Assembly: GCA_035555975.1 (NCBI GenBank) | Contig: DATMFV010000135.1 | Span: 1-64,000 of the forward strand | Length of the DNA: 64,000 nt | Source of the DNA: Chthoniobacteraceae bacterium | GTDB taxonomy: Bacteria; Verrucomicrobiota; Verrucomicrobiia; Chthoniobacterales; Chthoniobacteraceae | Direction of reading: 5' to 3' | Shown here: positions 1-52,934 of the stretch, in pieces | How the letters are laid out: every line of letters begins with the position of its first letter | Numbering within the stretch: the first letter of the stretch is position 1 | Position numbers and translations under genes: made by a program | The notes under the pieces: generated by a model | The model's database searches: none | What the model was told of the DNA's origin: nothing | The model's input: the letters and a program-made list of their open reading frames with translations, nothing else

Positions 1-3000
1 GATGGTAAAGGACTTCGAAGGGGTTGAGCCGCAGGGAGATCGCTTCCGCTGCGCCGGTTTCCAGAACGAGCTGCATCCCGAGCCCGTCCCCGGTCAATGC
101 CGTCGAAAGGGTCGCCTCTCCTGCCGATGCCACGGCGGCCACCGCCTTGAAGGCTTCGAAGTCACGCCCGGAAACCTCCCCGGTTTCAAGCTTTGTCCCC
201 TCCCCGGTCACGGTTTGCGCCACCTTGCCGCCGTAGTAACGGGCGACCACCGGGGCTTCGCCCTCGAAGTAACGCCGCTCCAGCGCCAGCGTTCCACCGG
301 CAGGCTGCGCCGTCTCGTTGCCGACGGCCCAAAGAGAGTCCCAGGCCGAACCGCCGCGGACGACCCACAGGGGAGCCTCCACCTTGGCCCCCGGCACCAG
401 TTTGCGACCGTGGACCATGCTTTCGATCAGGACCGGGTTGGCCTGCGTCATCCATTGGTAGCCGTGCAGGTAGGGCGGATCGAGGTAGACCGCCTCTCTT
501 AGCGCCAGCAGAAAAATCGACCGAAGGTTGCGACGGTAATACTCCCGCAACGACGCCGGGGTAAACTCCTCCGGGCGATAGTAGAGACCGAGTTGATCCG
601 CCCCGTAGCTTACCAGGCAGACGGTCGGTTTCTCTCCAAGCAGGTAGCGGTTGGCCCGGTACCCTTCGCCCAGCGATGAAAACCCCCAAAAGCGTTCGCC
701 CGCCTCGAAGGCGTTGGCCGAAGAGTGGGCCGAAAGCATGTAGGAGACCATCCCGAAGTCCGACCACATGCTCTGCCGGTACCCCTCGGTTGTGAAATCG
801 TTGATCTTCCGGTACCGGTCGACGTGCCCGAAACCGCCGACCAGGTAGGTTCCGCGATCCTGCGAAAAGGCCCGGCCCGGACTCTTGCGTGCGATCTCGT
901 CCACAAACCGGTAGGGCGAGATCTGGCACATGTCGTTGATAAACCCCGGTGAATAGCGGGCGACGAGCTTCATCAGCGCCACCTGGTCTTCGATGAACTT
1001 CTTCCCGAGCGGCGTCTTGAACTCGTTGACGAAAAGCCCCGTGGGCAGATAATACTGCCCGGCGACCAGCGGGTCGTCGCGGTCGTCAAACTTCGGGTAG
1101 AGATCCTCGACGATATAGGCGGCCGTCAGGTTCGGCACGTCGTGGCTTCGGCGCAGGGTATAGTAGTAGTCAAACGAATCCTTGTTCGTCTGAAGCATCC
1201 GTCTGCGAAGGTTTTCGATGGATCCGTAGAGCTGCTGGTGGCGCTCGCCGTGCGCGTAGTCGAGCCGGCCCTTGTACTTTTCATTGTTCCAGTACTTCTC
1301 CGAACCCATGTAGTCGCCCTTGGTATGGTAGGGACCATGCCCCCACTGGTTGCCGATGTAGAACTGGCGGGCGAGGTCAGGCAGGCGCATGTACTTGAAG
1401 TGTTGTGCCACCGGCATGTAGCTATAGATCGGCACATCGGCCACCTGGCGGTAGAGATCGCCAAACGCGGCATGGTAACGGTCGAGCGCGTCAAGGCTTC
1501 CGAAGCTCCCTTTTGCCGGGACGAGCAGGTACTCGATCTCAAAGCTCTCCCCGGGCGCGAGGACCAGCCGCGTCCCCTGCCGGATGACGCCCGTTGGCCC
1601 CACGGGGACCCATTCGGAGATCAGGCTGCTCAGGTTGATGTTCGGGTTGATCCCAAGACCCAGAGCCTTGCCGCTGCCGGAAGCGGCCACAAAAGGAAGG
1701 GTATAGATATACTCGTCGCGTCGGCGCGGAAATGCGAGCTGGTCCTGAATGCCGCTGCCGTCGAAATAGTCGCTTACCGTCGCACCGGGAAACGGAACGC
1801 CGAGCCGGACCTCCAGGCGCTGTTCGGTCGCCGAGCTGTTTTTGAGATTGACCCGCCAGCGCACCAGATCGTCCTCGCCGGAAACAATGGAGTGGGTCGC
1901 CTCGATCCGGTCGTCGAAACGCTGGACGAAACCGGCTTTGCCCGGGTTCGCCTCCCATTGCCCCGCCTCCACGGAAGCAGGCTCCGCCCGCTCCACATCG
2001 AAGCGGAGTTGCAACCCTTCACGCCCTGTTGCCGCTTCGCCAGCGGCGGTTTCCAGCCGGGCGAGATCCCCCCGCCCGGGGTCGAAGGAGAGCCGCAGCG
2101 GCCCCGCTTCCACCACTTTGAGCTCCCCTTCCGGCTCCCGCGAGACTGCCGCGGGAATCACCGGATGGCTGTAGCGGGTCGGGATTTCAGGGTGCTCCAC
2201 GGTGGAGGAAAAGGCATACGCCGGGCGGGCTCCCTCACGCCAGTTTGGCTCAAACCCGCCCCGGTACCGGGCCACCGAAGAGATGCGGAGTTCATCGAGC
2301 AGCAGACCGCTCATGGCAATCGGCCGCTGCGCTGCGGAGATGAGCGCCAACCCGTGCTCGCCCGTGATGTCATGAACGGCGGCGCGGCTCCCGTCGAGGT
2401 AGAACACCAGAGCGCCGTCGGCCCATGTCATGGCAAAGTGGTGCCATTCGTCCGACTCCAACTGGCGTTCGAAGCCGGGGGTCTTGCGGAAATCAACCCG
2501 CCCCTCCACGACTTTTCCCCCAACCGTCACCAGCTTGTAGAAAAGCTGTTGCCGGTTGAGCCGCAGGGTGGCCTGCGTGCGGGTCATTCCCACCCGCGGC
2601 CGTTCGTCGGTCTGTTTGTCGCCGGGGTCCGCCCCTTCCGGGCGAAGCTGCTGGATCGAATAAAAAAAGAGCGCGGCGTCGCCAAACAACGGCGCCGGAG
2701 CCCCCTCCTCTGCGGTGCGGAACCAGAACTCCACGGTTCCCTCGTCGTAACGGAGGTTGCCCTTCGGCCAGAACGCCCATTGCGCGTAGTCGCCCGGCTG
2801 CCCTTTGGCGGCCGCCGGGGCGCGCCCCCGCAGATCGACCCCTTTTCCGTAATAACCCTCCACCAGCGGTGCTCCCGAACCGGCGAAATGCCCCCAGCCG
2901 TTGGCGTAGGTGGCGCGGTAGGCATCGCCTTCAAACTGCCCGAGGAGCAACGTCTCGGCATCGGGCTTGAATGGTTGGCCCGCTTGAGGGTTACCGATAA

Positions 3001-3085
3001 CGCAATGCGGTAAAAGAAGAAGCGAGGCCAGAAAGGAAGCGGCTGGGAGACGGCGGGCGGGCCGCCAGGGAAGAAGGGGGTTCAT
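1..3085 (-). CDS. Large secreted protein with an N-terminal concanavalin/LamG-like domain. Partial: the C-terminus runs off the window start.
   Basis: Manual minus-strand translation from the ATG at 3085 is open to the window edge; the track omits it because it has no in-window stop. It starts MNPLLPWRPARRLPAASFLASLLLLPHC, a signal peptide, then a LamG-like block (TVEFWFR). The rest reads as protein (…YSYMPVAQHFKYMRLPDLARQFYIGNQWGHGPYHTKGDY…). The + ORF 1142..3013 is its antisense. Confidence 0.7.
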   Translation of the reverse strand, partial: MNPLLPWRPARRLPAASFLASLLLLPHCVIGNPQAGQPFKPDAETLLLGQFEGDAYRATYANGWGHFAGSGAPLVEGYYGKGVDLRGRAPAAAKGQPGDYAQWAFWPKGNLRYDEGTVEFWFRTAEEGAPAPLFGDAALFFYSIQQLRPEGADPGDKQTDERPRVGMTRTQATLRLNRQQLFYKLVTVGGKVVEGRVDFRKTPGFERQLESDEWHHFAMTWADGALVFYLDGSRAAVHDITGEHGLALISAAQRPIAMSGLLLDELRISSVARYRGGFEPNWREGARPAYAFSSTVEHPEIPTRYSHPVIPAAVSREPEGELKVVEAGPLRLSFDPGRGDLARLETAAGEAATGREGLQLRFDVERAEPASVEAGQWEANPGKAGFVQRFDDRIEATHSIVSGEDDLVRWRVNLKNSSATEQRLEVRLGVPFPGATVSDYFDGSGIQDQLAFPRRRDEYIYTLPFVAASGSGKALGLGINPNINLSSLISEWVPVGPTGVIRQGTRLVLAPGESFEIEYLLVPAKGSFGSLDALDRYHAAFGDLYRQVADVPIYSYMPVAQHFKYMRLPDLARQFYIGNQWGHGPYHTKGDYMGSEKYWNNEKYKGRLDYAHGERHQQLYGSIENLRRRMLQTNKDSFDYYYTLRRSHDVPNLTAAYIVEDLYPKFDDRDDPLVAGQYYLPTGLFVNEFKTPLGKKFIEDQVALMKLVARYSPGFINDMCQISPYRFVDEIARKSPGRAFSQDRGTYLVGGFGHVDRYRKINDFTTEGYRQSMWSDFGMVSYMLSAHSSANAFEAGERFWGFSSLGEGYRANRYLLGEKPTVCLVSYGADQLGLYYRPEEFTPASLREYYRRNLRSIFLLALREAVYLDPPYLHGYQWMTQANPVLIESMVHGRKLVPGAKVEAPLWVVRGGSAWDSLWAVGNETAQPAGGTLALERRYFEGEAPVVARYYGGKVAQTVTGEGTKLETGEVSGRDFEAFKAVAAVASAGEATLSTALTGDGLGMQLVLETGAAEAISLRLNPFEVLYH

Positions 3086-3146
3086 GATTTGTTTCAGGAA
3101 GAAAGGACAAAAAGATCTGCGGAAATTCAAGACAGGCACAACGTCG

Positions 3147-4241
3147 TCAGGCGGGCGTCAAGGGATGCCCGACGGTTTCGCGAACGACAAGGGAGGGCAA
3201 AAACGCTTCGTTCCGGTCGGAGAGGGTTTCATTGACGATCAAACTCGCCGCCCGCAGGCCGATGTCGACCCGAGGCCGTGAGATCGTCGTCAGGCGGGGA
3301 GGACCGCAAAGCGTCGGTGGAAATTCGAGTTCCTCGGCATCGTCGTACCCGAGCACGGAGATCTCTCCCCCCGGCTTGACGCCATGGCTCTCAAGGTAAT
3401 CAGCCACGGCCCGCGCGAAACTGTCCGAGTTGATAAAAAGGCAGCGGCCCGCCTCTCCCCGCGCCCGGAGTTTCTTCAACAGGTCGGCGGCGACCTTTCC
3501 GCTTCTCCAGGCGTACGGAAGATCGTAGTGGGGGTCGTAAAAATCCTTCATTTCCGAAACCTCCATCCCCAGCTTTTTCGCTTCCTCCATGAAGCCGAAG
3601 ATCCGCCCGTTCCACCGTTCCTCGCGGACCCAGTAGGCCAGAAGCGTTACTTTGCGAAAGCCCCGCTCGTGAAGGAACCGTGCCGCAAGGCGGCCGCCGT
3701 GAAAGTCGTCGATCACCAGCGAGTGAAAATCTTCCAGCGCCTCGAACAGTGCCAGGCGCGGCACCCCGGAGGCGACGATGGTGGCCGCCTCTTCGGGGCT
3801 GAGGTTGCGCCCCAGCACGATCAGGGCATCCACCAACCGGGGCGGCTGCACGAACTTCTGCAACTCCTTGAGATCGCCCGCCTTGAAGTAGTAGAAACCG
3901 AGGTGGTAGCCAGCCTTTTCCAGTTCATGTTGCAACCTGCGCAGGATCGGGAAATGAAGCGGGTTGTAGTAACTGAACTGCTGGTTGATATGAAAGCCGA
4001 CGTTCATCGTCTTTCGCAGGATCAACCCCCTGGCGGCAAGGTTCGGCTTGTAGCCCATCTCACTGGCAAGGGCGCGGATCTGTTCAAGCGTCTCGGGGCT
4101 GATCCGGTCGTTGGATTTCTTGCGCGGCATCAAGGCACGGGAAACCGTCATCGCCGAACAGCCCGCCCGTTTTGCGATCTCGTAAATGGTGACCCGCTTC
4201 TCCGCCTTGGGCCTCTTCTGCTGCGTCGTGGTCTGGTTCAT
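3147..4241 (-). CDS. LacI-family transcriptional regulator. An alternative upstream start lies at 4289.
   Basis: N-terminal HTH KRVTIYEIAKRAGCSAMTVSRAL, followed by a periplasmic-binding-protein-like sugar-binding fold. Confidence 0.8.
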   Translation of the reverse strand: MNQTTTQQKRPKAEKRVTIYEIAKRAGCSAMTVSRALMPRKKSNDRISPETLEQIRALASEMGYKPNLAARGLILRKTMNVGFHINQQFSYYNPLHFPILRRLQHELEKAGYHLGFYYFKAGDLKELQKFVQPPRLVDALIVLGRNLSPEEAATIVASGVPRLALFEALEDFHSLVIDDFHGGRLAARFLHERGFRKVTLLAYWVREERWNGRIFGFMEEAKKLGMEVSEMKDFYDPHYDLPYAWRSGKVAADLLKKLRARGEAGRCLFINSDSFARAVADYLESHGVKPGGEISVLGYDDAEELEFPPTLCGPPRLTTISRPRVDIGLRAASLIVNETLSDRNEAFLPSLVVRETVGHPLTPA

Positions 4242-4314
4242 CCGTAGTGTTGGGCTCGCGTCGAGTGGCGATTGAACCCTGAAAGACAATTCCCCTGCAA
4301 CCCTTTAACACCCT

Positions 4315-5166
4315 TTAACGCTTGCGACGCCGGAGCCACCGGGCCGAGCCAAACAGCACGACCCCTGCGCCGAGCAGCCCGAGCGTCGCCGGTTCGGGAA
4401 TGGGAGCAGGCACCGAAAAATTGTCGATGGCGCTGACACCGCGATAGATGGAGTTCGCCGCCGTTCCAAAAAAGGCATGGACTTCGTCGCCGGCCAATGC
4501 CGACATATCCTGCGACTCAGGGGTGGTGAAAGTATGGGTCGAAATCGCCATCGGTGACCCTCCCTCTCCACCGAAAGAATAGAGCGTGACGGCCACGGTA
4601 TAGCGCTTCTCCTCCGACGAGTAAGTCACATCGCCCGAAAGCTGATACCACTCTCCGCTGGTCAGCGTCACGTTCTGCTCGGACGGTCCCTGGAAATTCT
4701 CCGAGACCCCTCCCGCCACGCTGTTGCCGACGATTCTGATGGTATCTCCGGCAGCCACCCTGCCAATCCCGAAATAGACCTGATTCTGCTCCACCGAAGG
4801 AGAGCTGCCGCCGCCTCCATAAAATGGCGCGTAAGTGGCGCTGGGACCAAACCCGATGAACGCTCCATGCCCGGCGCCGGAAACCGCCGTTACCCATTGG
4901 AATGAGATGGAGAGGGTGAAGGAAACATCCCCGGCAAAGCCGTTCTTCAACACCAGGGTCGAAGCCCCGCCACCATTGTTGGCGGCAACGCCACCGGTCG
5001 ACCCGATGCCCGCATTGGCTCCCCAACTCCAGGTCGTCCCTCCGGTCGAATTGAAATCCGCCATCTGCGACACTTCATTGAAGTCGTAAAGCGTCCGGGC
5101 CGTTGAGGCCGGTTGGACGGCCATCCATCCAATGGCCACACAAAAGAGAAGGAGTGGTTTCATCAT
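4315..5166 (-). CDS. PEP-CTERM domain protein (exosortase substrate).
   Basis: Signal peptide MMKPLLLFCVAIGW; a Gly/Ser/Thr-rich body; the C-terminus IPEPATLGLLGAGVVLFGSARWLRRRKR is a PEP motif, a transmembrane helix and a basic tail. Confidence 0.8.
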   Translation of the reverse strand: MMKPLLLFCVAIGWMAVQPASTARTLYDFNEVSQMADFNSTGGTTWSWGANAGIGSTGGVAANNGGGASTLVLKNGFAGDVSFTLSISFQWVTAVSGAGHGAFIGFGPSATYAPFYGGGGSSPSVEQNQVYFGIGRVAAGDTIRIVGNSVAGGVSENFQGPSEQNVTLTSGEWYQLSGDVTYSSEEKRYTVAVTLYSFGGEGGSPMAISTHTFTTPESQDMSALAGDEVHAFFGTAANSIYRGVSAIDNFSVPAPIPEPATLGLLGAGVVLFGSARWLRRRKR

Positions 5167-5224
5167 GGGGAAAAAAGAAGGAAGGGGTTTAAGGGGGCGG
5201 ATCCAACAGCCTCCAGTGTCTGCC

Positions 5225-5304
5225 CTGAATGCGTTATGGATAACGCATTCAGTTTATATCATTACGAAGCGGTTGGAATGGCGATTGCGTTATCCATAAC
5301 GCAA
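5225..5304. promoter_or_regulatory. Two operator-like palindromes sharing a GCGTTAT-N2-ATAACGC core, upstream of the PEP-CTERM/LacI/secreted-protein gene string.
   Basis: 5225-5252 CTGAATGCGTTAT-GG-ATAACGCATTCAG is a perfect 13+2+13 palindrome. 5285-5304 TTGCGTTAT-CC-ATAACGCAA is a perfect 9+2+9 palindrome. Confidence 0.5.
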
Positions 5305-5373
5305 GAGGCCATTTACGTCAACGTCTCTTTTTGTAAAAATAAAATCCGACGAGTCTCCGAGGGCGAAAAGAAT

Positions 5374-5772
5374 TTAAATCTTCGTGATCCCCGCCAACCG
5401 GAACCCTTCTCCGACGAGGAGTTCGCGCACTTTTTCAAGCTGTCGGCCCTGAAGCTCGATCTCCCCCTCTTTCACGGCCCCGCCGCAGCCGCAGGCGACG
5501 CGCAACTCTTTTGCCAGCCGGGCCAGTTCCGCCTCGTTCGGCATGGGTTCAAACCGGATGACCAGCACGGTTTTGCCGCCCCGGTGCGCCGTCTCTTTGC
5601 GGAGGATCGCACGGCCCCGCGACTTGCCGGAGGGGGTGGAGGGGTCGCCCTGGGCCGGTTCTTCCCCCGGAGGCAACCCTTCCGCCGACAATCCTCCAAA
5701 CGCCGCGAAAAATCCGCCCGCGGGGGAGCGGTCGTGCGAGGTAGGCAAACGTTCCTTTTTGTCGCGCGCCAT
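5374..5772 (-). CDS. yciH: SUI1/YciH-family translation initiation factor.
   Basis: C-terminal GGKTVLVIRFEPMPNEAELARLAKELRVACGCGGAVKEGEIELQGRQLEKVRELLVGEGF matches the SUI1 fold. Confidence 0.75.
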   Translation of the reverse strand: MARDKKERLPTSHDRSPAGGFFAAFGGLSAEGLPPGEEPAQGDPSTPSGKSRGRAILRKETAHRGGKTVLVIRFEPMPNEAELARLAKELRVACGCGGAVKEGEIELQGRQLEKVRELLVGEGFRLAGITKI

Positions 5773-5775
5773 GGG

Positions 5776-6666
5776 TTAAAGAGCTTCGCTCCGCAACGTG
5801 ACGCGGAGCGTCTGCCGTTCGCCGGGGATGACTTCGCGCTGGTTCTCGCGCACGTTCCCGCTCTCCACGCAGACCATCTGCTTCCATTCGTCGTCGCCGA
5901 AGTCGGCCATCCGCTGCGCCTTGTCGATCCACGGGTTCCAGACGACGGTCGATTGCGATCCCGCCTTTTCGACGATGATCCTGCGGTCGAACCCCGGGTC
6001 TTCGATGACGCAGGTCGCCTCCGTATTAAGGTAGGCGCGGTCAAGCTCCCCTTCGAAGCGGATCGGCTTCGCGTTTTGCCGCTTGCGGGGGACCTCCTCG
6101 ATCGCGCTCAGATACTCGGTCTCCTCCAGACCGGTAATCGCGATGTTGCGGACATCGCTCACCGAAAAATAGGTGTGGAGCGCTTCTTCGTAGCGGAAGG
6201 GGGCGCTCCCGGTGTTGGTCACCTCCAGTTCCAGCGTCAGTTCGCTGCCGACCCTTACCCTGTAGCGGGCCACCCAGTCGTTGTTGAACACGGCCCCGGT
6301 CGCCCGGTCGGGTTTGAGCCTTAATTCCACCTGCACCGTCCCGTCGTCCTCCTGCCGGACGGCCTCCGCGGCCCAGGCGCAACGCCGCGCAAACCCGTGC
6401 GCGGGAAGGTCGGCCCCGTCCTGCCGCCCGCCGAACCATGGAAAGATGATCGGCACGCCGCCCCGGATCGGTTCCCCGCCCCGGAAGTGGCTCTTTTCGC
6501 TCAGGAAAAGGAGCGGCCGCTCCCCCGCCTTCGTGTAGGAGGCGACATGCGCGCCGTGGAGATAAATCTGCGCCTTTGCCAGCGGCGAGTCGATCTCCAG
6601 CCGGGGGAGACCGCCCAGCCCCGGGGCCAGCCGCACGCTGTTGGGAAAAACATTGGGTAAGCTCAT
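5776..6666 (-). CDS. D-hexose-6-phosphate mutarotase / aldose-1-epimerase family protein (YeaD-like).
   Basis: IRGGVPIIFPWFG hallmark and aldose-epimerase-like length. It sits 3 bp upstream of the SUI1 gene on the same strand. Confidence 0.7.
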   Translation of the reverse strand: MSLPNVFPNSVRLAPGLGGLPRLEIDSPLAKAQIYLHGAHVASYTKAGERPLLFLSEKSHFRGGEPIRGGVPIIFPWFGGRQDGADLPAHGFARRCAWAAEAVRQEDDGTVQVELRLKPDRATGAVFNNDWVARYRVRVGSELTLELEVTNTGSAPFRYEEALHTYFSVSDVRNIAITGLEETEYLSAIEEVPRKRQNAKPIRFEGELDRAYLNTEATCVIEDPGFDRRIIVEKAGSQSTVVWNPWIDKAQRMADFGDDEWKQMVCVESGNVRENQREVIPGERQTLRVTLRSEAL

Positions 6667-6691
6667 ATCAACATCATTTCGGGCCGTTCCC

Positions 6692-7426
6692 TCATCGCCG
6701 CTGTTTTAAAAAAGCCTGGACGATCGCTTCGGCGATCGCCTCGCGGTGAAGGGGATCGGCGCACCTGGCGGCTTCGCTTGCGTTGCTCAGGAAACCGCAT
6801 TCCACCAAAACTGACGGACCCTGCGAATAACGCAAGACCCGAAAATTGGCCGTTTTGACAAACCGTTTCCGGTGCCCCGCCGTGCGCGAAATGGAGGCGA
6901 GGAGATCGTAGGCCAGGCGGTCGGTCCCGCGTCGATTGTGGTAGATCTCAACGCCGTTGATGTGCCGTTTGGGCGAATCATTGTAGTGGATCGAAAGAAA
7001 AATGGAGTGCCGGTGCCGGTTGGAGATCGCCACGCGGGTGTTGAGCGGGATGAAACGGTCGTCGCGCCGGGTCATCACCGTATTGACCCCGGCGGCGCGA
7101 AGTTTGCGCTCGACCCGCAACGCCGTATCGAGTGCGATGTCCTTCTCCTTGATCAGCCGCCCCGTGCGGCGCGAAAGAGCGCCCGAGTCGTGTCCGCCAT
7201 GCCCGGCGTCGATGACGACCGTGGTAAATTTGGAAACTCCGCCCGGAGAGGCACACCCGCCCAGCCAGCCGACCATGCCCGCGATCGACAAAACCAACGC
7301 CACCCGGCGACACCACTCCCCCACCCTTCCGGATTCCGCTCTACGGCGCGCCGTTCCCCGCCGGGTTCGGGCCAAAAAAGGCCAAAAACCGGCTTGAAGC
7401 CGCACCCAATGAACGAAAACCTGCAT
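6692..7426 (-). CDS. N-acetylmuramoyl-L-alanine amidase (Amidase_3). The true start is probably internal, near the lipoprotein-like signal VALVLSIAGMVGWLGGCASP.
   Basis: VVIDAGHGGHDSGA … ECGFLSN motifs. Confidence 0.75.
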   Translation of the reverse strand: MQVFVHWVRLQAGFWPFLARTRRGTARRRAESGRVGEWCRRVALVLSIAGMVGWLGGCASPGGVSKFTTVVIDAGHGGHDSGALSRRTGRLIKEKDIALDTALRVERKLRAAGVNTVMTRRDDRFIPLNTRVAISNRHRHSIFLSIHYNDSPKRHINGVEIYHNRRGTDRLAYDLLASISRTAGHRKRFVKTANFRVLRYSQGPSVLVECGFLSNASEAARCADPLHREAIAEAIVQAFLKQRR

Positions 7427-7498
7427 GAAAAATCTTCAACCGCCCTTGAAACCGTTTCGCCTTCCGGCGCAGAAGGGAATCTAAAAGGAATCTAAAGG

Positions 7499-9637
7499 AT
7501 GAAAACCAATCGTCTCGCGCAAGAAAAATCACCCTACCTTCTTCAACACCAGCACAATCCGGTCGACTGGCACCCGTGGGGGGAGGAAGCGTTTGAAAAA
7601 GCCCGTCTGGAAGAACGCCCGATTTTCCTCTCCATCGGCTACTCCACCTGCCACTGGTGCCACGTCATGGAGCGCGAGTCGTTCGAAAACGAAGCGGTGG
7701 CCCACCTCCTCAACCGGCATTTTGTCCCGATCAAGGTCGACCGCGAGGAGCGGCCCGATGTCGACCGGCTCTACATGACCTTTGTGCAGGCGAGCACCGG
7801 CAGCGGAGGGTGGCCGTTGAGCGCGTTTCTCACTCCCGACTTGAAACCGTTCTTCGGCGGCACCTATTTCCCGCCTGAAGACCGCTACAACCGGCCCGGT
7901 TTTGTGACGCTCCTGCAACGGATCGCACAGGCGTGGGAGCACGACCGCGAGCGGCTCGTCCAGCATGGCGATTCGGTCGTTTCCACCTTGCAGGAAGCCC
8001 ATGAAACGCCCCGGCAGCAGGCCGAAGGAGGAGCCGCCGACCTGGCAACGCTCGAACGCGCCGCCGCGCGGATCATGAGTCATTTTGACCCGGAAGAGGG
8101 CGGTTTTTCCGGCGCGCCGAAGTTTCCAAGACCCGTCACCTTTCATTTTCTCTTTCGCTACGCCGCCCTCACCCGGGATCGGAACGGGGCCGCAAAGGCG
8201 CGCGAGGCGGCGCTTTTCACGCTGCGGAAAATGGCGCTCGGGGGGATGCACGACCACCTCGGCGGCGGTTTTCATCGCTACTCGGTCGACCGTTACTGGC
8301 ATGTTCCCCACTTTGAAAAGATGCTTTACGACCAGGCGCTGCTCGCCGTGGCGTACCTTGAGGCATTCCAGATCGCAGGGCGGCCGGAAGACGCCGCCGT
8401 GGCCGCCGACATCCTCGATTATGTCCAGGCCAACCTGCTTGGGCCCGAAGGCGGGTTTTACTGTGCCGAAGATGCCGACAGCCCCCACCCCGATGACCCG
8501 TCGCAAAGCGGCGAAGGGGCCTTCTACGTCTGGACGCGCGACGAGATCGCCGACGCCCTGGCTCCCGAAGCCGCTGCGATCTTCAACCGCGCCTACGGGG
8601 TTGAAAAAGGGGGGAATGCCCCGCAGGAAAGCGACCCGCACGGCGAGTTGACGGGCAAAAATACCCTGATCCGCCGCGTTTCGGACGAAGAGCTGGCCGC
8701 GCAGTTCAAAAGCGACCCGGAAACGATCGCCCGGTCGCTTGCCGAAAGCCGCCGCACGCTGCTGACGCTGCGCAACCAGCGCCCCCGCCCGCATCTCGAC
8801 GACAAGATCCTGACCGCCTGGAACGGGATGATGATCTCCGCCTTTGCCAGGGCCGCCCACCTTCTGCCCCAGGAAAACCGCGACGATCTCGGGGTCGCCC
8901 GGCGCGCCGCCGCCTTCCTGCGCCAGCATCTCCAGCGCGACGGGCGGCTGTTGCGCTCGTGGCGCGAAGGCCCCGGGGAGACGCCCGCGTTTGCGGAGGA
9001 TTATGCCTTTACCATCGCCGGTCTGCTCGACCTTTACGAGGCCGGAGCGGGCATCGAATGGCTCCGGTGGGCGGTCGAATTGCAGGAGATCTTCGACCAT
9101 CTCTTCTTTGATGAACGCCACGGTGGCTATTTCTCCACTGCCGGCACCGACCCCGCCCTTTTCCTCCGGATGAAGGACGATTACGACGGGGCCGAACCGT
9201 CGTCGAACTCGATCGCCGTCGCCAATGCGCTGCGGCTGGCCGACCTTCTCGACGATGCCGCGCTGCGTGAACGCGCCGACCGGACGCTGGAGAGCTTTGC
9301 CGACCAGCTCCGGAGGACGCCCGAAGCCGTGCCGCTGCTGCTCGGCTCGCTGGCGTTTTCGCTCAGCGAACCCGAGGCATTCATCGTCGCGGGGACGCCG
9401 GTGGAGCCGTGGCTGCACGAACTGGGAACCCGTTTTCTCCCGTTCCGAACGATCCGCTTTGCCGACGGCGGCGAGGGACAGGCGTGGCTCGCCCGGCGGC
9501 TCGGGTTCCTGCGCGAACTCGCACCGCCCGAGGGGGTTCCCTCCGCGCTTTATCTCTGCCGCGCCCATGCCTGCCTGCCGCCGATCACCGAGTTCAGCGC
9601 CACCGGGGACGAGTTGGAACGCTTTGGGGTGGGGTAG
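7499..9637 (+). CDS. Thioredoxin-domain protein of the DUF255 / YyaL / SSP411 family (N-acylglucosamine-2-epimerase-like C-terminus).
   Basis: [26 protein letters not shown]…[17 protein letters not shown] thioredoxin-like N-terminus; 712 aa. Confidence 0.8.
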
Positions 9638-47083: not shown

Positions 47084-48037
47084 ATGAAAAAGACCCTGCT
47101 CCGAACCACCGTCTCCCTCCTCGCCACGGCGGCGCTGACGCTGCCCGCAGCCGCCAATACGCTGCTCGTCAACTGGGGAGGCAACTATTTTGTTGGAGAA
47201 TCCGCCACCGACCTGAACATCCTGACCAACTACGGGACGCAGGAACCGATCTCGGGCGGCTTTCTTCTCCCCTACAGTACCGTCTCCACGATGTCGCCCG
47301 ACAAACACGCCCGATATGATGCCGACGGCACTTCCGCCACCTTCTACGGAGCCGTCCAGATTACCAGCCAAAGCGGCACCACCACCGATGCGCAGGTGCG
47401 CATCCTGCGCAACAACGACCAGAACCGCATCCACATCAATACCGCTGTCGGGAACGCCTCCAATCACACCTTCACGCGGGGGCTTTTCTTCTGGAAGAAG
47501 GAAGATTTCCTCAATGGTTTTGCAGATCAGCCCAACCTTTCGCTGGCTGATTTTCAGAAGCTGACCCTCAACACCGCCAACGCCCGCAGCAATCAAAATA
47601 CCGCCATCCGTTTTGCCGTCCTGAGCGACGGCGTCTGGTATCTCTCGCAAACCCAGCAAACCGGCACCTACTTCAACAGCGCGCCGGGTGAATTTCTTCT
47701 CGCCGTCCCGGTGGAGGAGAACTGGGGCATCTGGAACCCGGCCACCTCCCCGCTCGACCTGCCGCCCACGACGTTTGACAAGCCCGGCTCCGAGTTGGAC
47801 AACATCACCGCCATCGGCTTCTACTTCGATGGCACCTACACCGGGAGCAACTCGGCTTCGTTTGATTTCCAGAGCTTCTCAGTGACCGTCATCCCCGAAC
47901 CCGGCGCCGCCGCCCTCCTCGGCCTCCCTGTGCTATTGCTCGCGGCCTCCCGCTTCAAACGCCGCAGGCAGGCGCTGCCGCCCCTGCCCTCGCCCTCGCC
48001 CTCGCAACAGGCCGGAGCTTTCCCAGGAGTCCATTGA
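47084..48037 (+). CDS. PEP-CTERM domain protein.
   Basis: Signal peptide MKKTLLRTTVSLLATAALTLPAAA; C-terminus VIPEPGAAALLGLPVLLLAASRFKRRR. Confidence 0.8.
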   Translation: MKKTLLRTTVSLLATAALTLPAAANTLLVNWGGNYFVGESATDLNILTNYGTQEPISGGFLLPYSTVSTMSPDKHARYDADGTSATFYGAVQITSQSGTTTDAQVRILRNNDQNRIHINTAVGNASNHTFTRGLFFWKKEDFLNGFADQPNLSLADFQKLTLNTANARSNQNTAIRFAVLSDGVWYLSQTQQTGTYFNSAPGEFLLAVPVEENWGIWNPATSPLDLPPTTFDKPGSELDNITAIGFYFDGTYTGSNSASFDFQSFSVTVIPEPGAAALLGLPVLLLAASRFKRRRQALPPLPSPSPSQQAGAFPGVH

Positions 48038-48488: not shown

Positions 48489-48596
48489 AAACACGAAAGG
48501 GCGGCGGCCCCCGGCATGGGACTCCGCTCCACGCCCGCCACCCGCCCGTCCGGAAAGACGGGTGTCAAGCTTCCCCTCACCAACGCCAAACCGCTG

Positions 48597-48821
48597 CTAT
48601 GTTGTCGCAGGGTGATGGGAGCGGCTGGCGCAGGAGGCGCAGCAGTAGACCTTCCCCTCCTCCTCCACGCCATGCCCGATCACCCGGCAGCCACAATGCG
48701 CGCACTTCGGGGCAAGGGCCTGAATGGCGCACTCAAAGCTGTCAAAAACGTGGGATTCCCCCTGGATGGAGATTTCCAGCGGTTTGTCGTATTCGTTGCC
48801 GCAGACTTCACATTGCATCAT
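48597..48821 (-). CDS. Small Cys-rich, zinc-ribbon-like putative metal-binding protein (TRASH/YHS-like), 74 aa.
   Basis: MMQCEVCGNEYDKPLEI…HVFDSFECAIQALAPKCAHCGCRVIGHGVE…YCCASCA. An internal MM start was chosen; the 92 aa upstream of it in the track ORF are Arg/Gly-rich junk. Confidence 0.45.
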   Translation of the reverse strand: MMQCEVCGNEYDKPLEISIQGESHVFDSFECAIQALAPKCAHCGCRVIGHGVEEEGKVYCCASCASRSHHPATT

Positions 48822-48924
48822 GCCCGTAATATCGTGAGCGCCACGCCCGCCGGTCCTGCCGGAATGGCTTTTCCTATGCCCGCCACCCGCTGGGGAAATG
48901 CCCGCGCCTTGCGGTGAAACGGAA

Positions 48925-49179
48925 TCACCGGGTTTCCGGTAACGGTCCCTCTTTTTTCGTCGGCCCGGCGAGAAAGTCCACGGCAAGCGTTGCCATCGTG
49001 CGGGCGCTGACGACCAACGCGCTGTCATCGACAAAAAAACCGGGGTTATGATTAGGGGCTGCTTTCGCCGGGTCTTGATCAAGCGGTGTAATCCCAAGGA
49101 AAACGTAGAGGCCGGACCATCCGCTTGCTTGCGCTACTCCTGAAAGTGGCATCCCACACCCCCCTGCGAGAGACGTGGG
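48925..49179 (-). pseudogene. C-terminal ~85-aa remnant of an M20D-family amidohydrolase. The N-terminal ~300 aa are missing, at the low-GC islet border.
   Basis: …GWSGLYVFLGITPLDQDPAKAAPNHNPGFFVDDSALVVSARTMATLAVDFL resembles the C-terminal HHxP(K)FDxDE…A…FL block of M20D amidohydrolases. The frame opens at a TAA at 49180-49182 and GC content drops just beyond it. Confidence 0.45.
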
Positions 49180-49244
49180 TTATTTGGTGAGAACCTGATT
49201 GAACCAGAGGATAGCCGCTTCTCCCTCTTTCTGCACAATCTCAC

Positions 49245-51398
49245 TTACCGTACGACTGTGGCGGATGCCGTTTCGTAATTCAGCCAGTTGATCGAATTTG
49301 GTGCCAAGCGACTCCTTTGTGCCAAAACGTGATTAAACAGAGGCCATGACATCCTGCCGACAATGGTGGCCTGCAACTCTCGAAGATCGAAATATTCCAA
49401 TTTTCCGACCAATGTTTGAAATCTTTCAACGTCAAGAGATGCGTTCTTTTTAGTAGCCCGGGCTATCCGTTCGTCTACCTTTTGCAGAACGTGTAAAGGA
49501 ATCTGCGACAACTCGGTACCGACGACCCTCTCGATCATTGCGCGCAGGGCGAGCTCAACCTTCTCGGTTGCCGCATCCAAATCGCGGAACTGAGGCGACA
49601 GGTCAAGACGTTCTTTGATCAGGAGGTTCTCAATCGCCTCTTGCAGAGTACGTTGGCGCTCCGCGATGAAGCACTCAAAATCTTCAGGACCGAACTCGGG
49701 TCTGAGCAGGATGTCGAACGCTGCGGGAGAGATAAAGTGTGATTCGAGAATGCTGCGCACCGTGGCTTCACCGCTCTGCGTGATCAACTCAGGCAAGTAT
49801 TCATAAGGGAGACGTGCCCTGATGATGTGTCGGTTGGTGTTGGCGGTAAGCGGCGTGCGGTTAAGGATCGAGTTACCGAGGGCATCGTTGATATTATCCT
49901 TGCACCACGAAGCAGGAACAATGTGATGGTCATCAAGGTCGCCATATTGGGGAACATCGCCGGTCATCCAATCCCGAGCCCCTTGAAGGATCAAAAGGTT
50001 GAAGATGCCGTTGTAAACGGAAGTACCCCGCTTGATTTCCTTCCGCAATTCGAGATTGCGGAAGCGTTGTGCAAACTCTGCAATCAAGGCAGGCTCTGAA
50101 ATATCGTTATGGAACCATTCTTTTACATCCAGAAAATCGCGAGCACTAGTAGACTCGACTGAGCCTGAATAACGGTTATTAAAGACGGATGCCCAATACC
50201 AGTGCCGGAGTTTCCTGCGAGCGTCCAGTTGCCTTACTGCCGGGAGTGTTTTGCTGTGAGCACGCAGCGCCGCAAAGACGGGCAGAATGGAAACATATGG
50301 GAGAAAGTTCGGGTTGACAGCCCCATACTCTTGAGGGTGGCTCAAGACTTTAAGTGCACTATCCAACGCATCGACAGCAATATTCCACCGCGATTCAAAC
50401 TCACTAATATCGGAAATGAGAATTTCTTTGCGTCGCGTGCCGTCTGGGTCGCGGACCGGCTTCTCTTGCCCTGGTAATAAGAAATAAAGATACCTCGGCG
50501 AGCAATAACCCTGCCGGAGAATACTCATTACCTGAAGAATATAGACGTTCATTTTCTCGGTTTCGACCGCCTCAAGCCGTGGGGCTGCTTCTCGCCACAT
50601 TTGTTTGAGTTGAAGTCCTTTTGGCTTCAGCAAGGCATTGATGAGGTCGAATACATCGAGACGGATGCCACGGCTATTGATTTGCGTAAAAATATCACAA
50701 ACCTTATCCACTTTAAGGTCTTTATCGAGCTCGATATATGAGATCTGGTACTGACCGGTGATGCCCTGAAGCAGCTCACCAAAAGCCCTGGCATTAGAGC
50801 AGTGGTTTTGTGCGAGCTGGGCCTCCTCCCCTCCTGCAGCTTCGGCTTTCGCCTTCCAAAACGCCTCGTAACGCTGAACCCAGTTCGGCAACTCCCACCC
50901 GGTCGCTCCAATAATGGAGAAAGGAAATAAATGATTGGCAAACTGTGCTTCCTGATCGGAAAGAACGTTGACCCATCGACGAGTTAGCCTTTCGTAGCCG
51001 AATGCCTCGTCGTATTCTTCCTTCATGAATTTATCCACATGCACGAAATAGAAGAATCGGCTTGTTCGATTGGGAAGTGGCACGTCGGGCGACAGGAACG
51101 CGTAGTATATCGCTGTAAGACGTTGTTGTCCATCAAGGACAATATATTCCGGCTTCCCGACACCCTCGTAACCATAAATAGACTCGCATGACAAAGCTTC
51201 AAAGTTCTCCGTCTTACCCTTCCACAGCAAGAGACTCCCGATGTAGTAATCAAGAAAGATTGAGCGCATTAACTCCCGGATATCCCAAGGCTTCCATTCG
51301 AATTCCCGTTGGAAATCCGGTATAACGAAACGTCCTTCGCGGAGGTAGTTTACAAGAGTGTTAAGACTAAGGTGATCGGGCCTTTGAGCGCCTTTCAT
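49245..51398 (-). CDS. DUF262 (ParB-like, DGQQR) plus DUF1524 (His-Me/HNH) fusion protein. A GmrSD/SspE/BrxU-like putative modification-dependent nuclease with an extra ~150 aa C-terminal domain.
   Basis: N-terminus IPDFQREFEW…YIVLDGQQRLTAIYY (DUF262) and C-terminus GDLDDHHIVPASW…NSILNRTPLTANTNR (DUF1524); 717 aa. GC is around 50% against ~65% in the flanks, with an AT-rich codon bias. Confidence 0.75.
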   Translation of the reverse strand: MKGAQRPDHLSLNTLVNYLREGRFVIPDFQREFEWKPWDIRELMRSIFLDYYIGSLLLWKGKTENFEALSCESIYGYEGVGKPEYIVLDGQQRLTAIYYAFLSPDVPLPNRTSRFFYFVHVDKFMKEEYDEAFGYERLTRRWVNVLSDQEAQFANHLFPFSIIGATGWELPNWVQRYEAFWKAKAEAAGGEEAQLAQNHCSNARAFGELLQGITGQYQISYIELDKDLKVDKVCDIFTQINSRGIRLDVFDLINALLKPKGLQLKQMWREAAPRLEAVETEKMNVYILQVMSILRQGYCSPRYLYFLLPGQEKPVRDPDGTRRKEILISDISEFESRWNIAVDALDSALKVLSHPQEYGAVNPNFLPYVSILPVFAALRAHSKTLPAVRQLDARRKLRHWYWASVFNNRYSGSVESTSARDFLDVKEWFHNDISEPALIAEFAQRFRNLELRKEIKRGTSVYNGIFNLLILQGARDWMTGDVPQYGDLDDHHIVPASWCKDNINDALGNSILNRTPLTANTNRHIIRARLPYEYLPELITQSGEATVRSILESHFISPAAFDILLRPEFGPEDFECFIAERQRTLQEAIENLLIKERLDLSPQFRDLDAATEKVELALRAMIERVVGTELSQIPLHVLQKVDERIARATKKNASLDVERFQTLVGKLEYFDLRELQATIVGRMSWPLFNHVLAQRSRLAPNSINWLNYETASATVVR

Positions 51399-51446
51399 AT
51401 GAACAGTCCTTTCTTCATAAATAGAGTCGATAGGCGGGCATCCACC

Positions 51447-51887
51447 TCAGCGGCATCGTGCTTCAATGGTATAGCTAAAAAATGTTGCACAAATAGCGCA
51501 GCAGTCTATCCGATAGACGCCTTTGTTGGTCCAGTGCGCATCGCTCATTACATCATAAAGCGTATGCGGGTTCGCTTGCCCAATGCCCCAAGAGGCAGCT
51601 TCGAACGTCTGTTCAACGTTTACTACGACTTCCCGGACGTCGCGAAAATGGCGACTCTCGGCCCTTCGAAAGCGGCAGTTCTCCAGAAAAAGTGCTGATT
51701 CCCGATCTTTATCGAACTCCTTCAGCGCGGCCCCATGCTGTTCGTAATGAACATCGGAGGGGCGTTTCGAGAACGGGAGCGAAAAGGGGTATAATTTACA
51801 ATCTGCAGTACGGAGCGGCTTCTTGAGAAACCACGCGGTTTCCCAAAAATGAGATTCGAGTTGTTGCTGGGTGAGTCTTTGCATCAC
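51447..51887 (-). CDS. Hypothetical 146-aa protein in the low-GC islet, 48 bp upstream of the DUF262/DUF1524 gene on the same strand.
   Basis: Protein-like composition (…HFWETAWFLKKPL…YRIDCCAICATFFSY…). The overlapping + ORF 51309..51698 is rejected because it overlaps the big gene's start. Confidence 0.4.
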   Translation of the reverse strand: MMQRLTQQQLESHFWETAWFLKKPLRTADCKLYPFSLPFSKRPSDVHYEQHGAALKEFDKDRESALFLENCRFRRAESRHFRDVREVVVNVEQTFEAASWGIGQANPHTLYDVMSDAHWTNKGVYRIDCCAICATFFSYTIEARCR

Positions 51888-52210
51888 AAGGTGTCGCGGT
51901 CTGCGCCAAATCGCGCGAGGTTAAGGCGGACCTGGGATGTAAAGCGAGCGTTTTTAAGGAACCCTTGGAGATAACCTCGCCCCCCTCACCTCTCCGTTCA
52001 TGTTGACCATTCATTCCAAGTCAAGCGGTCACAGCAGAAAAGACCGATAACTACTCATGGATCGAAAAAAGAAAATGTGTGACAGTCATGTGTGACACTT
52101 TCTCTTTTTCGGTCATTTTTGAGGCGATCCCTCAAGAGTTGGGGGAGATCGGCAAACCTACGTTCTCCCTCGTGCAGCAATGCAAAAAGAGTCCAGAGGC
52201 GTGGAGGGGG

Positions 52211-52302
52211 TGGCGGAAGGGGCGGGATTCGAACCCGCGGTGAGGTTTCCCCCACGTTCGATTTCGAGTCGAGTGCCTTAAACCGGACTCAGCCACCCTT
52301 CC
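52211..52302 (-). tRNA. tRNA-Ser(CGA), type II with a long variable arm, including the encoded CCA.
   Basis: Reverse complement: GGAAGGG TG GCTGAGTCCGGTTTAAGGC A CTCGA CUCGAAA TCGAA CGTGGGGGAAACCTCACC GCGGGTTCGAATCCCGC CCCTTCC G CCA. The 7-bp acceptor, D and T stems pair, the T-loop is TTCGAAT and the anticodon loop is CT-CGA-AA. Confidence 0.85.
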
Positions 52303-52564
52303 GTTTGGTGGAACTGCCGGTATGGTGGCCGGTAGTTTGAAGGCGAGACGATAGGCGCGGAGTGGTTGGGAGGCAATGAAAATCTTTGAGTTTTTTGGGG
52401 AATCGGTCGTTTGACGTTTCTTTGGGTGTTGGAGGGGGCGATTCGCGATTGCTCAGGGCCGGAAAAAGGCTCAACATCGTTGTTTCTTCGCAGGAAAAGG
52501 AGGGTCGGACGGCTCGGTTTTTTGTTCCGATTCCGGCTCCCGCGAAAAATGGAGGAAACTTGAC

Positions 52565-52924
52565 ATGATGCAAACCAAACGTGTCTATGACCCGGCTTCA
52601 GACGAGGATGGAAGCCGGTTTCTGGTCGAACGGCTCTGGCCGCGCGGTGTGAAAAAGGAAGCGCTGGCGATGGAGGCGTGGTGCAAGGAGGCGGGACCGA
52701 GTACCGAACTGCGCAAATGGTTCAACCATGATCCCGAAAAATGGGCTGAGTTCCAGCGCCGATACCGGGCGGAACTCAATGAACGACCCGAGGCGTGGCA
52801 GCCGATCCTCGACGCTGCGAAAAAAGGAACGGTCACGCTCCTCTACAGTTCGCACGATACCGAACACAACAATGCCAAGGCGCTGGAAAGCTACCTCAAA
52901 AAACGGCTGGCCTCAAAAAAGTAA
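52565..52924 (+). CDS. DUF488 (YeaO-like) protein.
   Basis: RVYDPASDEDGSRFLVERLWPRGVKKE…RKWF.HDPEKW..F..RY..EL; 119 aa. Confidence 0.7.
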   Translation: MMQTKRVYDPASDEDGSRFLVERLWPRGVKKEALAMEAWCKEAGPSTELRKWFNHDPEKWAEFQRRYRAELNERPEAWQPILDAAKKGTVTLLYSSHDTEHNNAKALESYLKKRLASKK

Positions 52925-52934
52925 CCCCGATGTG

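Follow-up and report, generated by a model that had tools for sequence, protein, structure and literature searches.

GmrSD-like genes are often found nested inside Hma systems and type I restriction-modification (R-M) operons (Payne et al., bioRxiv 10.1101/2024.01.29.577857), and for one such case, TgvAB of VPI-2 in V. cholerae, a role in type IV defence has been shown (PMC11411939). An architecture joining ParB (DUF262), HNH and Swt1/Abi2-type HEPN domains was catalogued in 2013 (Anantharaman et al., PMC3710099, Table 1). Here we describe an islet of roughly 3.3 kb, low in guanine plus cytosine (GC), which carries a GmrSD-family nuclease gene and lies beside a tRNA-Ser(CGA) gene. The islet is part of a 64-kb stretch, hereafter the window, of a 131-kb metagenome contig (ENA ERZ27256370, k141_541489) from the Chthoniobacteraceae (Verrucomicrobiota), the host being a soil or freshwater Verrucomicrobium. 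The same sequence is also present in Logan contigs of SRR7976237, and both assemblies may derive from the same reads. BrxU (= HEC-05), HEC-06, TgvAB and RloF of Campylobacter served as the comparison set for embedded GmrSD-family enzymes. In our reading, held with a probability of about 0.8, the islet is what deletions have left of a type I R-M operon that was acquired horizontally and had a GmrSD-family HEPN nuclease embedded in it.

A preliminary description of the window had reported a drop in GC content from ~65% to ~50% between 49.18 and 52.21 kb. Sliding-window analysis bore this out. In 3-kb windows GC content was 0.50-0.51 inside 48.9-52.3 kb, versus a mean of 0.628 (standard deviation 0.016, minimum 0.587) in the remaining 546 windows, a deviation of ~8 standard deviations. 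No 1-kb window of the 64 kb fell below 0.565 outside the islet. The stretch with a GC content of 0.50 covers about 49.0-52.2 kb, and a weaker compositional anomaly reaches left to about 48925 and right, past the tRNA gene, to about 52930. Codon usage, which was also to be checked, gave the same picture: GC content at third codon positions (GC3) was 0.55 in the nuclease gene and in the gene remnant upstream of it, versus 0.74-0.85 in host genes of the window. The foreign block probably spans roughly 48925-52210, i.e. ~3.3 kb. Each gene within it is a fragment or frameshifted, in line with the decayed element that had been proposed.

The central gene (49180-51398, minus strand) belongs to the GmrSD family. 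As assigned by Pfam, alignment and three-frame translation, it specifies a DUF262 nucleoside triphosphatase (NTPase) and a helical linker, then a putative nuclease of the His-Me (HNH-like) type and, at the C-terminus, a Swt1-like HEPN domain. In the public annotation the locus appears as a 717-aa 'DUF262 domain-containing protein', corresponding to the listed open reading frame (ORF) at 49245-51398 (minus strand); gene callers also predict a 75-aa ORF and a second, antisense one that is spurious. This gene had been presented as a restriction-like DUF262/DUF1524 nuclease. The DUF262 part of this assignment stands, since Pfam GmrSD_N/DUF262 (PF03235) matched residues 14-257 with an E value of 1.5e-31. 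Pfam DUF1524 (PF07510) was undetected in the window ORF and in full-length homologs, even at E<=10, and the gene carries a frameshift. The best PADLOC match of the ORF was HEC-05 (E 3.8e-22). The DUF262 motifs QR (Q30 R31), DGQQR (D89-G-Q-Q-R93) and FxxxN (F237..N241) are intact and invariant in the alignment, and so is the His-Me motif DDHHIVP..N..N (D489-D-H-H-I-x-P495, N513 and N522).

The reading frame stays open for 691 codons and is then broken by a 1-nt deletion at 49333-49335 (minus strand), where the window reads TTT^AA at 49335/49334 and the homologs read TTT GAA (…WPLF-E-SRFG…). In the alignment the window protein departs from all homologs after '…SWPLF'. Three-frame translation showed that the family sequence resumes in another frame as SRFGTKESLGTKFDQLAELRNGIRHSRTVSEIVQKEGEAAILWFNQVLTK and ends at the true family stop codon, at 49180-49182. 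The frameshift swaps the last 52 family residues for 26 unrelated ones. The HEPN motif is precisely what is lost: LRNGIRHSR and the family's own C-terminus can be read only in the shifted frame. The ENA and Logan assemblies do not differ at this site. A programmed frameshift was considered and rejected, as no full-length homolog retrieved has such a shift and all read through TTT GAA. As it stands, the gene would be either a fresh pseudogene or a gene for a predicted HEPN-less enzyme.

Homologs of the window protein are 743 aa long and 72-84% identical to it. They occur in Paracoccus, Mesorhizobium, a Rhizobium plasmid, Planctomycetaceae, Chloroflexi, Micropepsaceae and Verrucomicrobiota. Such identities in other phyla and on mobile elements support horizontal spread. 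The nuclease family comprises 651 representative clusters at E<=1e-30, with some members of ~580-600 aa that have no HEPN domain. In searches of plasmid, phage and IMG/VR collections, the islet DNA had no match, and the plasmid homologs of the nuclease protein were below 31% identity. An AlphaFold (AF2) model of one homolog (P0006), built from a 34-sequence alignment, reached a predicted local distance difference test (pLDDT) score of 88.9. When the model was searched against the PDB with Foldseek, the only significant matches were BrxU (E 4.7e-11, ~650 aligned columns) and DndI (E 8.5e-6). The family profile also matched BrxU in the PDB (E 1.4e-26), in three stretches, of which the nuclease-domain stretch (510-598 versus BrxU 502-579) aligned weakly. 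The last ~140 residues of the family form a helical domain with an RNxxxH motif conserved in members that are 28-100% identical. Pfam HEPN_Swt1 matched a distant member (P0272) with E 6.3e-11 (43 bits versus a cutoff of 27.5) and another member (P0157) with E 8.6e-5, and close homologs of the window protein gave only sub-threshold HEPN matches.

Directly upstream of the nuclease gene lies hsdM1', a type I R-M methyltransferase pseudogene (51398-51887, minus strand), recognised by PADLOC, tblastn and DNA alignment of its 3' end. The preliminary description had listed this region as a small ORF within the cargo. It is not an independent gene but the N-terminal remnant of hsdM1: the ORF (51447-51887, 146 aa) matched the PADLOC MTase_I profile with E 3.7e-23 over positions 1-122 of 896. 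In tblastn comparisons with the intact HsdM1 proteins of three related modules (L083, L085 and L086, see below), homology runs in frame to residue ~122 and then in two other frames to ~151. Codons 1 to ~151 of hsdM1' thus survive (51887 to ~51440), and the frame is shifted at least twice beyond codon 122. Beyond this point, the sequence jumps directly to the last 17-20 codons of hsdM1, where the ATGA stop/start overlap onto the nuclease gene is kept. Accordingly, ~330 codons (~1 kb) are deleted within hsdM1', with a short 'AAE' microhomology (51443-51457) at the point of joining.

The operon to which these fragments belong was found complete, or nearly so, elsewhere. Five independent contigs carry homologs that are 81-85% identical to the window protein, in modules at L083 8580-21085, L085 7767-19235, L086 8442-15910, L213 517-5773 and L214 8520-19601. 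In all five, the core order is hsdM1, nuclease gene, hsdM2, in the same orientation and with overlapping stop and start codons. In the intact modules, the nuclease gene is coupled translationally to the methylase genes that flank it. The core is followed first by variable inserts, including an AbiE toxin-antitoxin pair, an HNH_5 gene and others, and then by hsdS in four of the five contigs and by hsdR in three (two contigs end sooner). The hsdS product has a Methylase_S domain and the hsdR product has HSDR_N and ResIII domains; the two HsdM paralogs are ~40% identical to each other at the N-terminus. In L085 the module lies directly beside Tn7-like genes (3-5569; TnsA-like, a 754-aa ORF and TniB/TnsC-like), which suggests that it travels as transposon cargo. 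In L086 it sits on a conjugative element (1-8351; TrwC relaxase, TrwB-type coupling protein and a CbiA/ParA-like gene), and a HamA-domain gene is present downstream. The other modules are in chromosomal contexts or islands, and none of the five contigs has a tRNA gene adjoining the module. No experimental study of the hsdM1-nuclease-hsdM2 module was found in the literature searched.

In the window, this embedding between two hsdM genes is only vestigial, with the hsdM1 remnant upstream of the nuclease gene and a vestige of the hsdM2 start downstream (49165-49179, minus strand). Blastn homology to the intact modules extends from 51411 to 49170-49177 only, the left end points being those in L083, L086, L213 and L214. 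The hsdM2 start codon, which overlaps the nuclease stop codon, has changed from ATG to ATA and is followed by ~12 nt of hsdM2. Of these 12 nt after the nuclease stop, nine match the hsdM2 start in fixed register, and similarity ends beyond. Neither hsdS nor hsdR was found within the annotated 10 kb on either side of the islet, and no functional hsd gene is left in the window.

The hsdM2 vestige runs into the C-terminal fragment of an M20-family amidohydrolase gene (48925-49164, minus strand; 75-85 codons), which has neither a 5' part nor a promoter of its own. The fragment ORF spans 48925-49152, and its frame is open to 49179, the same frame as that of the preceding sequence at the junction. 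It matches only the C-terminal end of M20 amidohydrolases; the homologs, named amidohydrolase or aminoacylase, are 64-88% identical and carry PF01546. A weak CpsA match covers positions 344-390 of 391. Pfam gave no match on the fragment itself, and full-length catalytic and dimerisation domains are not encoded.

The fragment was initially taken for an M20D gene of the host that had been cut by the insertion. A truncated M20 gene is indeed present, but its origin as a native target is improbable, in view of the hsdM2-M20 scar and of its islet-like codon usage. GC3 of the fragment is 0.573, versus a host median of 0.81, and only 0.4-0.8% of 75-codon host windows are as low in GC3 or in host-versus-islet codon log-likelihood. 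Its nearest homologs lie in ~65% GC DNA, with GC3 of ~0.8. The fragment shares 88% amino-acid identity with the closest of them over 49 codons, of which 27 differ at the third position (14 GC-to-AT versus 6 AT-to-GC changes). Neutral decay strong enough to produce so low a GC3 would be expected to leave the protein sequence far less well kept; the fragment would instead have stayed functional while evolving at lower GC, and it is therefore probably part of the imported DNA and not a native gene split by insertion. Because the junction joins hsdM2 to an M20 gene, it is a deletion scar and not an insertion edge. The Cys-rich gene left of the fragment (48597-48830) has a host-like GC3 of 0.74, which likely places the left edge of the foreign block at about 48925. 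The contexts of M20 homologs on three other contigs (L091, L092 and L212) are unrelated to the window, and two of these are error-fragmented long-read contigs. In these two (L091 2326-3669 and L092 6153-7250, both ENA contigs of long-read style), the M20 gene and many neighbouring genes are split into short ORFs, most likely by indel errors. Short 'M20 C-terminal' proteins in databases are therefore often artefacts and not true truncations.

The fragments of the islet differ strongly in their state of preservation. Among the intact modules, HsdM1 N-terminal regions are 78-86% identical (nonsynonymous divergence, dN, 0.10-0.17) and nuclease proteins 84-90% identical (dN 0.07-0.10). The window nuclease gene is 82-85% identical to its intact homologs, with dN of 0.087-0.12 and changes at 35 of 538 invariant sites (6.5%). 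For hsdM1' the corresponding values are 50-60% identity, dN of 0.29-0.42 and changes at 23 of 69 invariant sites (33%). The 49 codons after the frameshift (dN 0.065-0.13, 3 of 37 invariant sites changed) are as conserved as the rest of the nuclease gene, with equal dN. Synonymous divergence (dS) was saturated and dN/dS was therefore unusable. As the nuclease gene is conserved like its intact counterparts and hsdM1' is not, hsdM1 would have died long ago, with purifying selection continuing to act on the nuclease gene. The frameshift would be recent, or possibly a sequence error.

The following course of events could account for these observations. A cluster with hsdM1, the GmrSD-like nuclease gene, hsdM2, variable inserts, hsdS and hsdR would have been acquired horizontally. 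In it, hsdM1 has lost ~1 kb internally and has decayed. Everything from hsdM2 codon ~5 on (hsdM2, hsdS, hsdR and whatever followed) has been deleted, and the end of an M20 gene now follows the middle of the module, the only part to survive. R-M function would be gone, and selection would have maintained the nuclease as an enzyme acting by itself long after the death of hsdM1. Such an enzyme would be type IV-like, with a DUF262 NTPase or sensor domain that controls a His-Me DNase, as in BrxU, GmrSD and TgvB. The 1-nt deletion, which shifts the C-terminal HEPN motif into another frame, would be recent.

The right edge of the strongly low-GC DNA lies at 52211, directly after the encoded CCA of the tRNA-Ser(CGA) gene (52211-52302, minus strand). 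This gene is intact and is the single tRNA found here by both ARAGORN and Rfam (51.9 bits). The abutment of the islet on its 3' end, as first described, was thus confirmed. Rfam matched the tRNA only, and nothing else, the spacer included. This spacer (51888-52210, strand-neutral; 323 nt, GC 0.51) is non-coding and separates the tRNA gene from the hsdM1 remnant. It holds no ORF with homology and no coding potential, and a promoter and terminator scan showed nothing convincing. Its fold z-score (-1.97) was not significant. A 10-nt direct repeat, ATGTGTGACA, is present in it at 52075-52084 and 52088-52097, with a 13-nt period. The repeat region (52075-52097) is about 190-210 nt upstream of the hsdM1 remnant and sits within an A/T-rich palindromic stretch (GAAAAAGAGAAA…TTTTCTTTTTTC, minus strand); it may be an old operator or promoter. 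Comparison of the spacer with the upstream regions of the five homologous modules revealed no similarity and no common motif, and the ATGTGTGACA repeat is not conserved there.

The 3' flank of this tRNA was also followed in other genomes. When metagenomes were scanned with a tRNA-Ser(CGA) pattern, 80 loci from a wide range of phyla were returned, and the flanking genes of the window are absent from all of them. One contig (L120, 1912 nt) has an identical 92-nt tRNA gene and 12 identical upstream bases; its similarity to the window stops exactly at 52211, and a SocA/Panacea antitoxin-like gene follows the tRNA in 49% GC DNA. In another (L118, 1710 nt), a 98% identical tRNA gene is followed by a gene for a D12-class Dam methylase, and similarity again ends exactly at 52211. 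For orthology with the window, the 5' flank of L120 is too short and that of L118 is different. More distant tRNA contigs have argG or other housekeeping genes after the tRNA, argG being found in two loci only and not in the window. These sequences fit a tRNA 3' flank that is variable and island-prone, L120 and L118 not being orthologous empty sites. A second scan covered reference genomes, one per species, and was queried with the neighbouring ABC substrate-binding protein (SBP). None of the 21 loci obtained has a tRNA-Ser gene nearby, and an empty site was not seen. All that the closest reference genome (L001) has in common with the window is YkuD (68%) and SBP (76%). Its synteny stops exactly at the YkuD 3' end, where purU is found, without a tRNA or DUF488 gene. 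Exact-protein look-ups (DUF262, DUF488, GNAT and 75-aa ORFs) returned the same organism only, in its two assemblies.

This position could also be explained by an integrase-borne island that entered the 3' end of tRNA-Ser(CGA) beside a native M20D gene, with later decay in which the integrase, attR and the M20D 5' part were lost. This is close to what was proposed at the outset. The strongly low-GC DNA begins exactly after the tRNA CCA, contigs with the same tRNA diverge at that very point and carry other mobile-type cargo, and the closest M20 homologs come from organisms of ~65% GC, like the host. Several results speak against it. No integrase or transposase Pfam domain was found among genes called at 39.2-61.4 kb (~10 kb on either side of the islet), as had been noted for the integrase. 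Positions 48925-52210 hold no ORF besides the fragments described above, hence no integrase gene. The stated absence of a direct repeat of the tRNA 3' end was likewise upheld over the 64 kb: a 28-mer search allowing up to 3 mismatches recovered the tRNA itself only, and blastn-short gave only chance-level matches of 9-14 nt. The repeat finder showed nothing relevant or above chance in the way of attachment (att) repeats, inverted repeats or transposon ends. Moreover, hsdM1' lies only 323 nt from the tRNA, the usual place of an integrase gene. The third-codon composition and codon usage of the M20 fragment, its 88% identity, which fits evolution at lower GC and not the neutral decay of a native gene, and the scar that joins it to hsdM2 are all at odds with a native M20D gene. 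We consider an integrase-borne entry unlikely. The claim of the tRNA as an integration site thus keeps its positional part, and targeted integration is at most a candidate mechanism of entry, with no empty site found and an odd composition beyond the tRNA. In the reading of an eroded R-M operon, a place directly 3' of the tRNA would suit a hotspot for islands.

The odd composition beyond the tRNA suggests a different alternative of similar, low probability, in which a larger variable block (~48925-52930) takes in both the DUF488/YeaO gene and the tRNA. Instead of marking a boundary, the tRNA would be part of a variable patchwork or separate two acquisitions. Between 52250 and about 52950 GC content is 0.51-0.59, and only at the 3' end of the YkuD gene, which is also where L001 synteny stops, does it regain 0.63. 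The DUF488/YeaO-family gene (52565-52924), on the 5' side of the tRNA, has a GC3 of 0.664, at about the 1% quantile of host windows. Such a value is only mildly atypical, and the family is ubiquitous and highly conserved, with no signal of recent transfer. Lower GC is general in intergenic DNA, related contigs share the tRNA but neither flank, and L001 is distant enough for its loss of synteny to be uninformative.

An assembly artefact would be a third explanation, the contig being chimeric at the conserved tRNA, with the islet and left flank from one organism and the right flank from another. The Logan assembly of SRR7976237 does break within the tRNA: one contig (L082) ends at 52240 and the next (L089) starts at 52211, with a 30-nt overlap. 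Identical tRNAs also exist in other organisms, and the break implies a branch of the assembly graph at the tRNA, from other strains or species that share it. A chimera is very improbable all the same, because the ENA contig was assembled with k=141 (inferred from its name), more than the 92-nt tRNA, so that the join needs spanning sequence, because both flanks share host-like codon usage, and because both assemblies run uninterrupted through the junctions within the islet. Finally, that the islet consists of native, vertically inherited low-GC genes can practically be dismissed: there is no empty-site comparison to set against a native origin, but the GC deviation of ~8 standard deviations, the 72-84% identical homologs in other phyla and on mobile elements, and the content of the segment, only gene fragments of a module that is complete elsewhere, all contradict it.

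Several points nevertheless weigh against a horizontally acquired and eroded R-M operon, or against parts of this account. No relative with an empty site or with an intact island at the tRNA was found, and the order of events is reconstructed and not observed. The window contains no integrase, att repeat or transposon end, and the tRNA may not be the true edge of the island, the DUF488 gene beyond it also being atypical. The foreign origin of the M20 fragment is drawn from the composition of 75 codons, which is not proof. With dS saturated, selection is deduced from dN and conserved-site counts only, and the low identity of hsdM1' could partly come from descent from a more divergent hsdM1 lineage, not from decay. 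The frameshift was read in two assemblies that may share their reads, and Pfam fails to recognise DUF1524 in this nuclease family.

Two genes left of the islet deserve a brief mention. The Cys-rich ORF at 48597-48830 (minus strand) encodes 77 aa (MMQCEVCGNEYDKP…CCASCASRS) with a weak resemblance to prokaryotic metallothionein (E 0.0022, short of the Pfam cutoff). Public gene calls place a 133-aa ORF on the opposite strand instead (48516-48917, plus strand); the Cys-rich minus-strand ORF looks like the real gene there. Further left, 47084-48037 encodes a 317-aa secreted protein with a PEP-CTERM-like sorting signal at its end (VIPEPGAAALLGLPVLLLAASRFKRRR) and no Pfam match. This gene forms a local GC dip (0.57-0.585), yet its GC3 of 0.79 is host-like.

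Altogether, the islet is a real but ordinary genomic scar, a new instance of a well-known feature. Its value is partly one of annotation, as a locus listed as one 'DUF262 protein' is what remains of a single defence operon, in three or four gene fragments. The islet also cleanly illustrates the erosion of a defence island, in which the R-M genes were deleted and the embedded type IV-like nuclease would have outlived them. The conserved cross-phylum module, present on several kinds of mobile element, is a more interesting by-product than the remnant itself. A bolder reading, which we hold as tentative and rather doubtful, is that the nuclease is a self-sufficient, methylase-independent defence enzyme, non-toxic without its partners; the window would be a natural knock-out, and the two-methylase module a distinct, uncharacterised subtype of type I R-M plus type IV defence. 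It would rest on the loss of both methylase genes and of hsdS and hsdR, on the conservation of the nuclease at the level of its homologs, and on the roughly three-fold faster decay of hsdM1'.

Compared with known systems, the islet resembles tRNA-associated islands of the P4-like type in its atypical composition, its defence cargo, its position directly 3' of a tRNA and the variable cargo found at that position elsewhere. Unlike these islands, it measures only 3.3 kb and has no integrase, no tRNA-end repeat and no demonstrable empty site. The ancestral module resembles type I R-M systems such as EcoKI in having hsdM, hsdS and hsdR in one operon, but it contains two different hsdM paralogs and embedded genes, and the window is without a functional hsd gene. 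The nuclease shares with BrxU and GmrSD enzymes the N-terminal DUF262 domain with QR, DGQQR and FxxxN, the helical linker and the C-terminal His-Me motif, which reads DHHIVP in the window family versus DHIYP in BrxU. It differs from BrxU in its identity of only ~17%, in the failure to detect Pfam DUF1524 and in its extra C-terminal Swt1-like HEPN domain. With the ParB (DUF262)+HNH+HEPN proteins of PMC3710099 it has in common the three-domain architecture, the association with R-M operons and the Rx4H (RNxxxH) motif; that architecture was listed from sequence analysis alone with no member studied, and the window copy has its HEPN motif out of frame. The window copy further differs from BrxU and TgvAB in being frameshifted and in the deletion of the surrounding system, and its family consists of a single protein, unlike the two-protein TgvAB. 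As in TgvAB and the cases of Payne et al., the gene of its relatives lies nested within a type I R-M operon and points the same way as its neighbours. Members of the window family always lie between two hsdM paralogs, however, and not between hsdR and hsdS.

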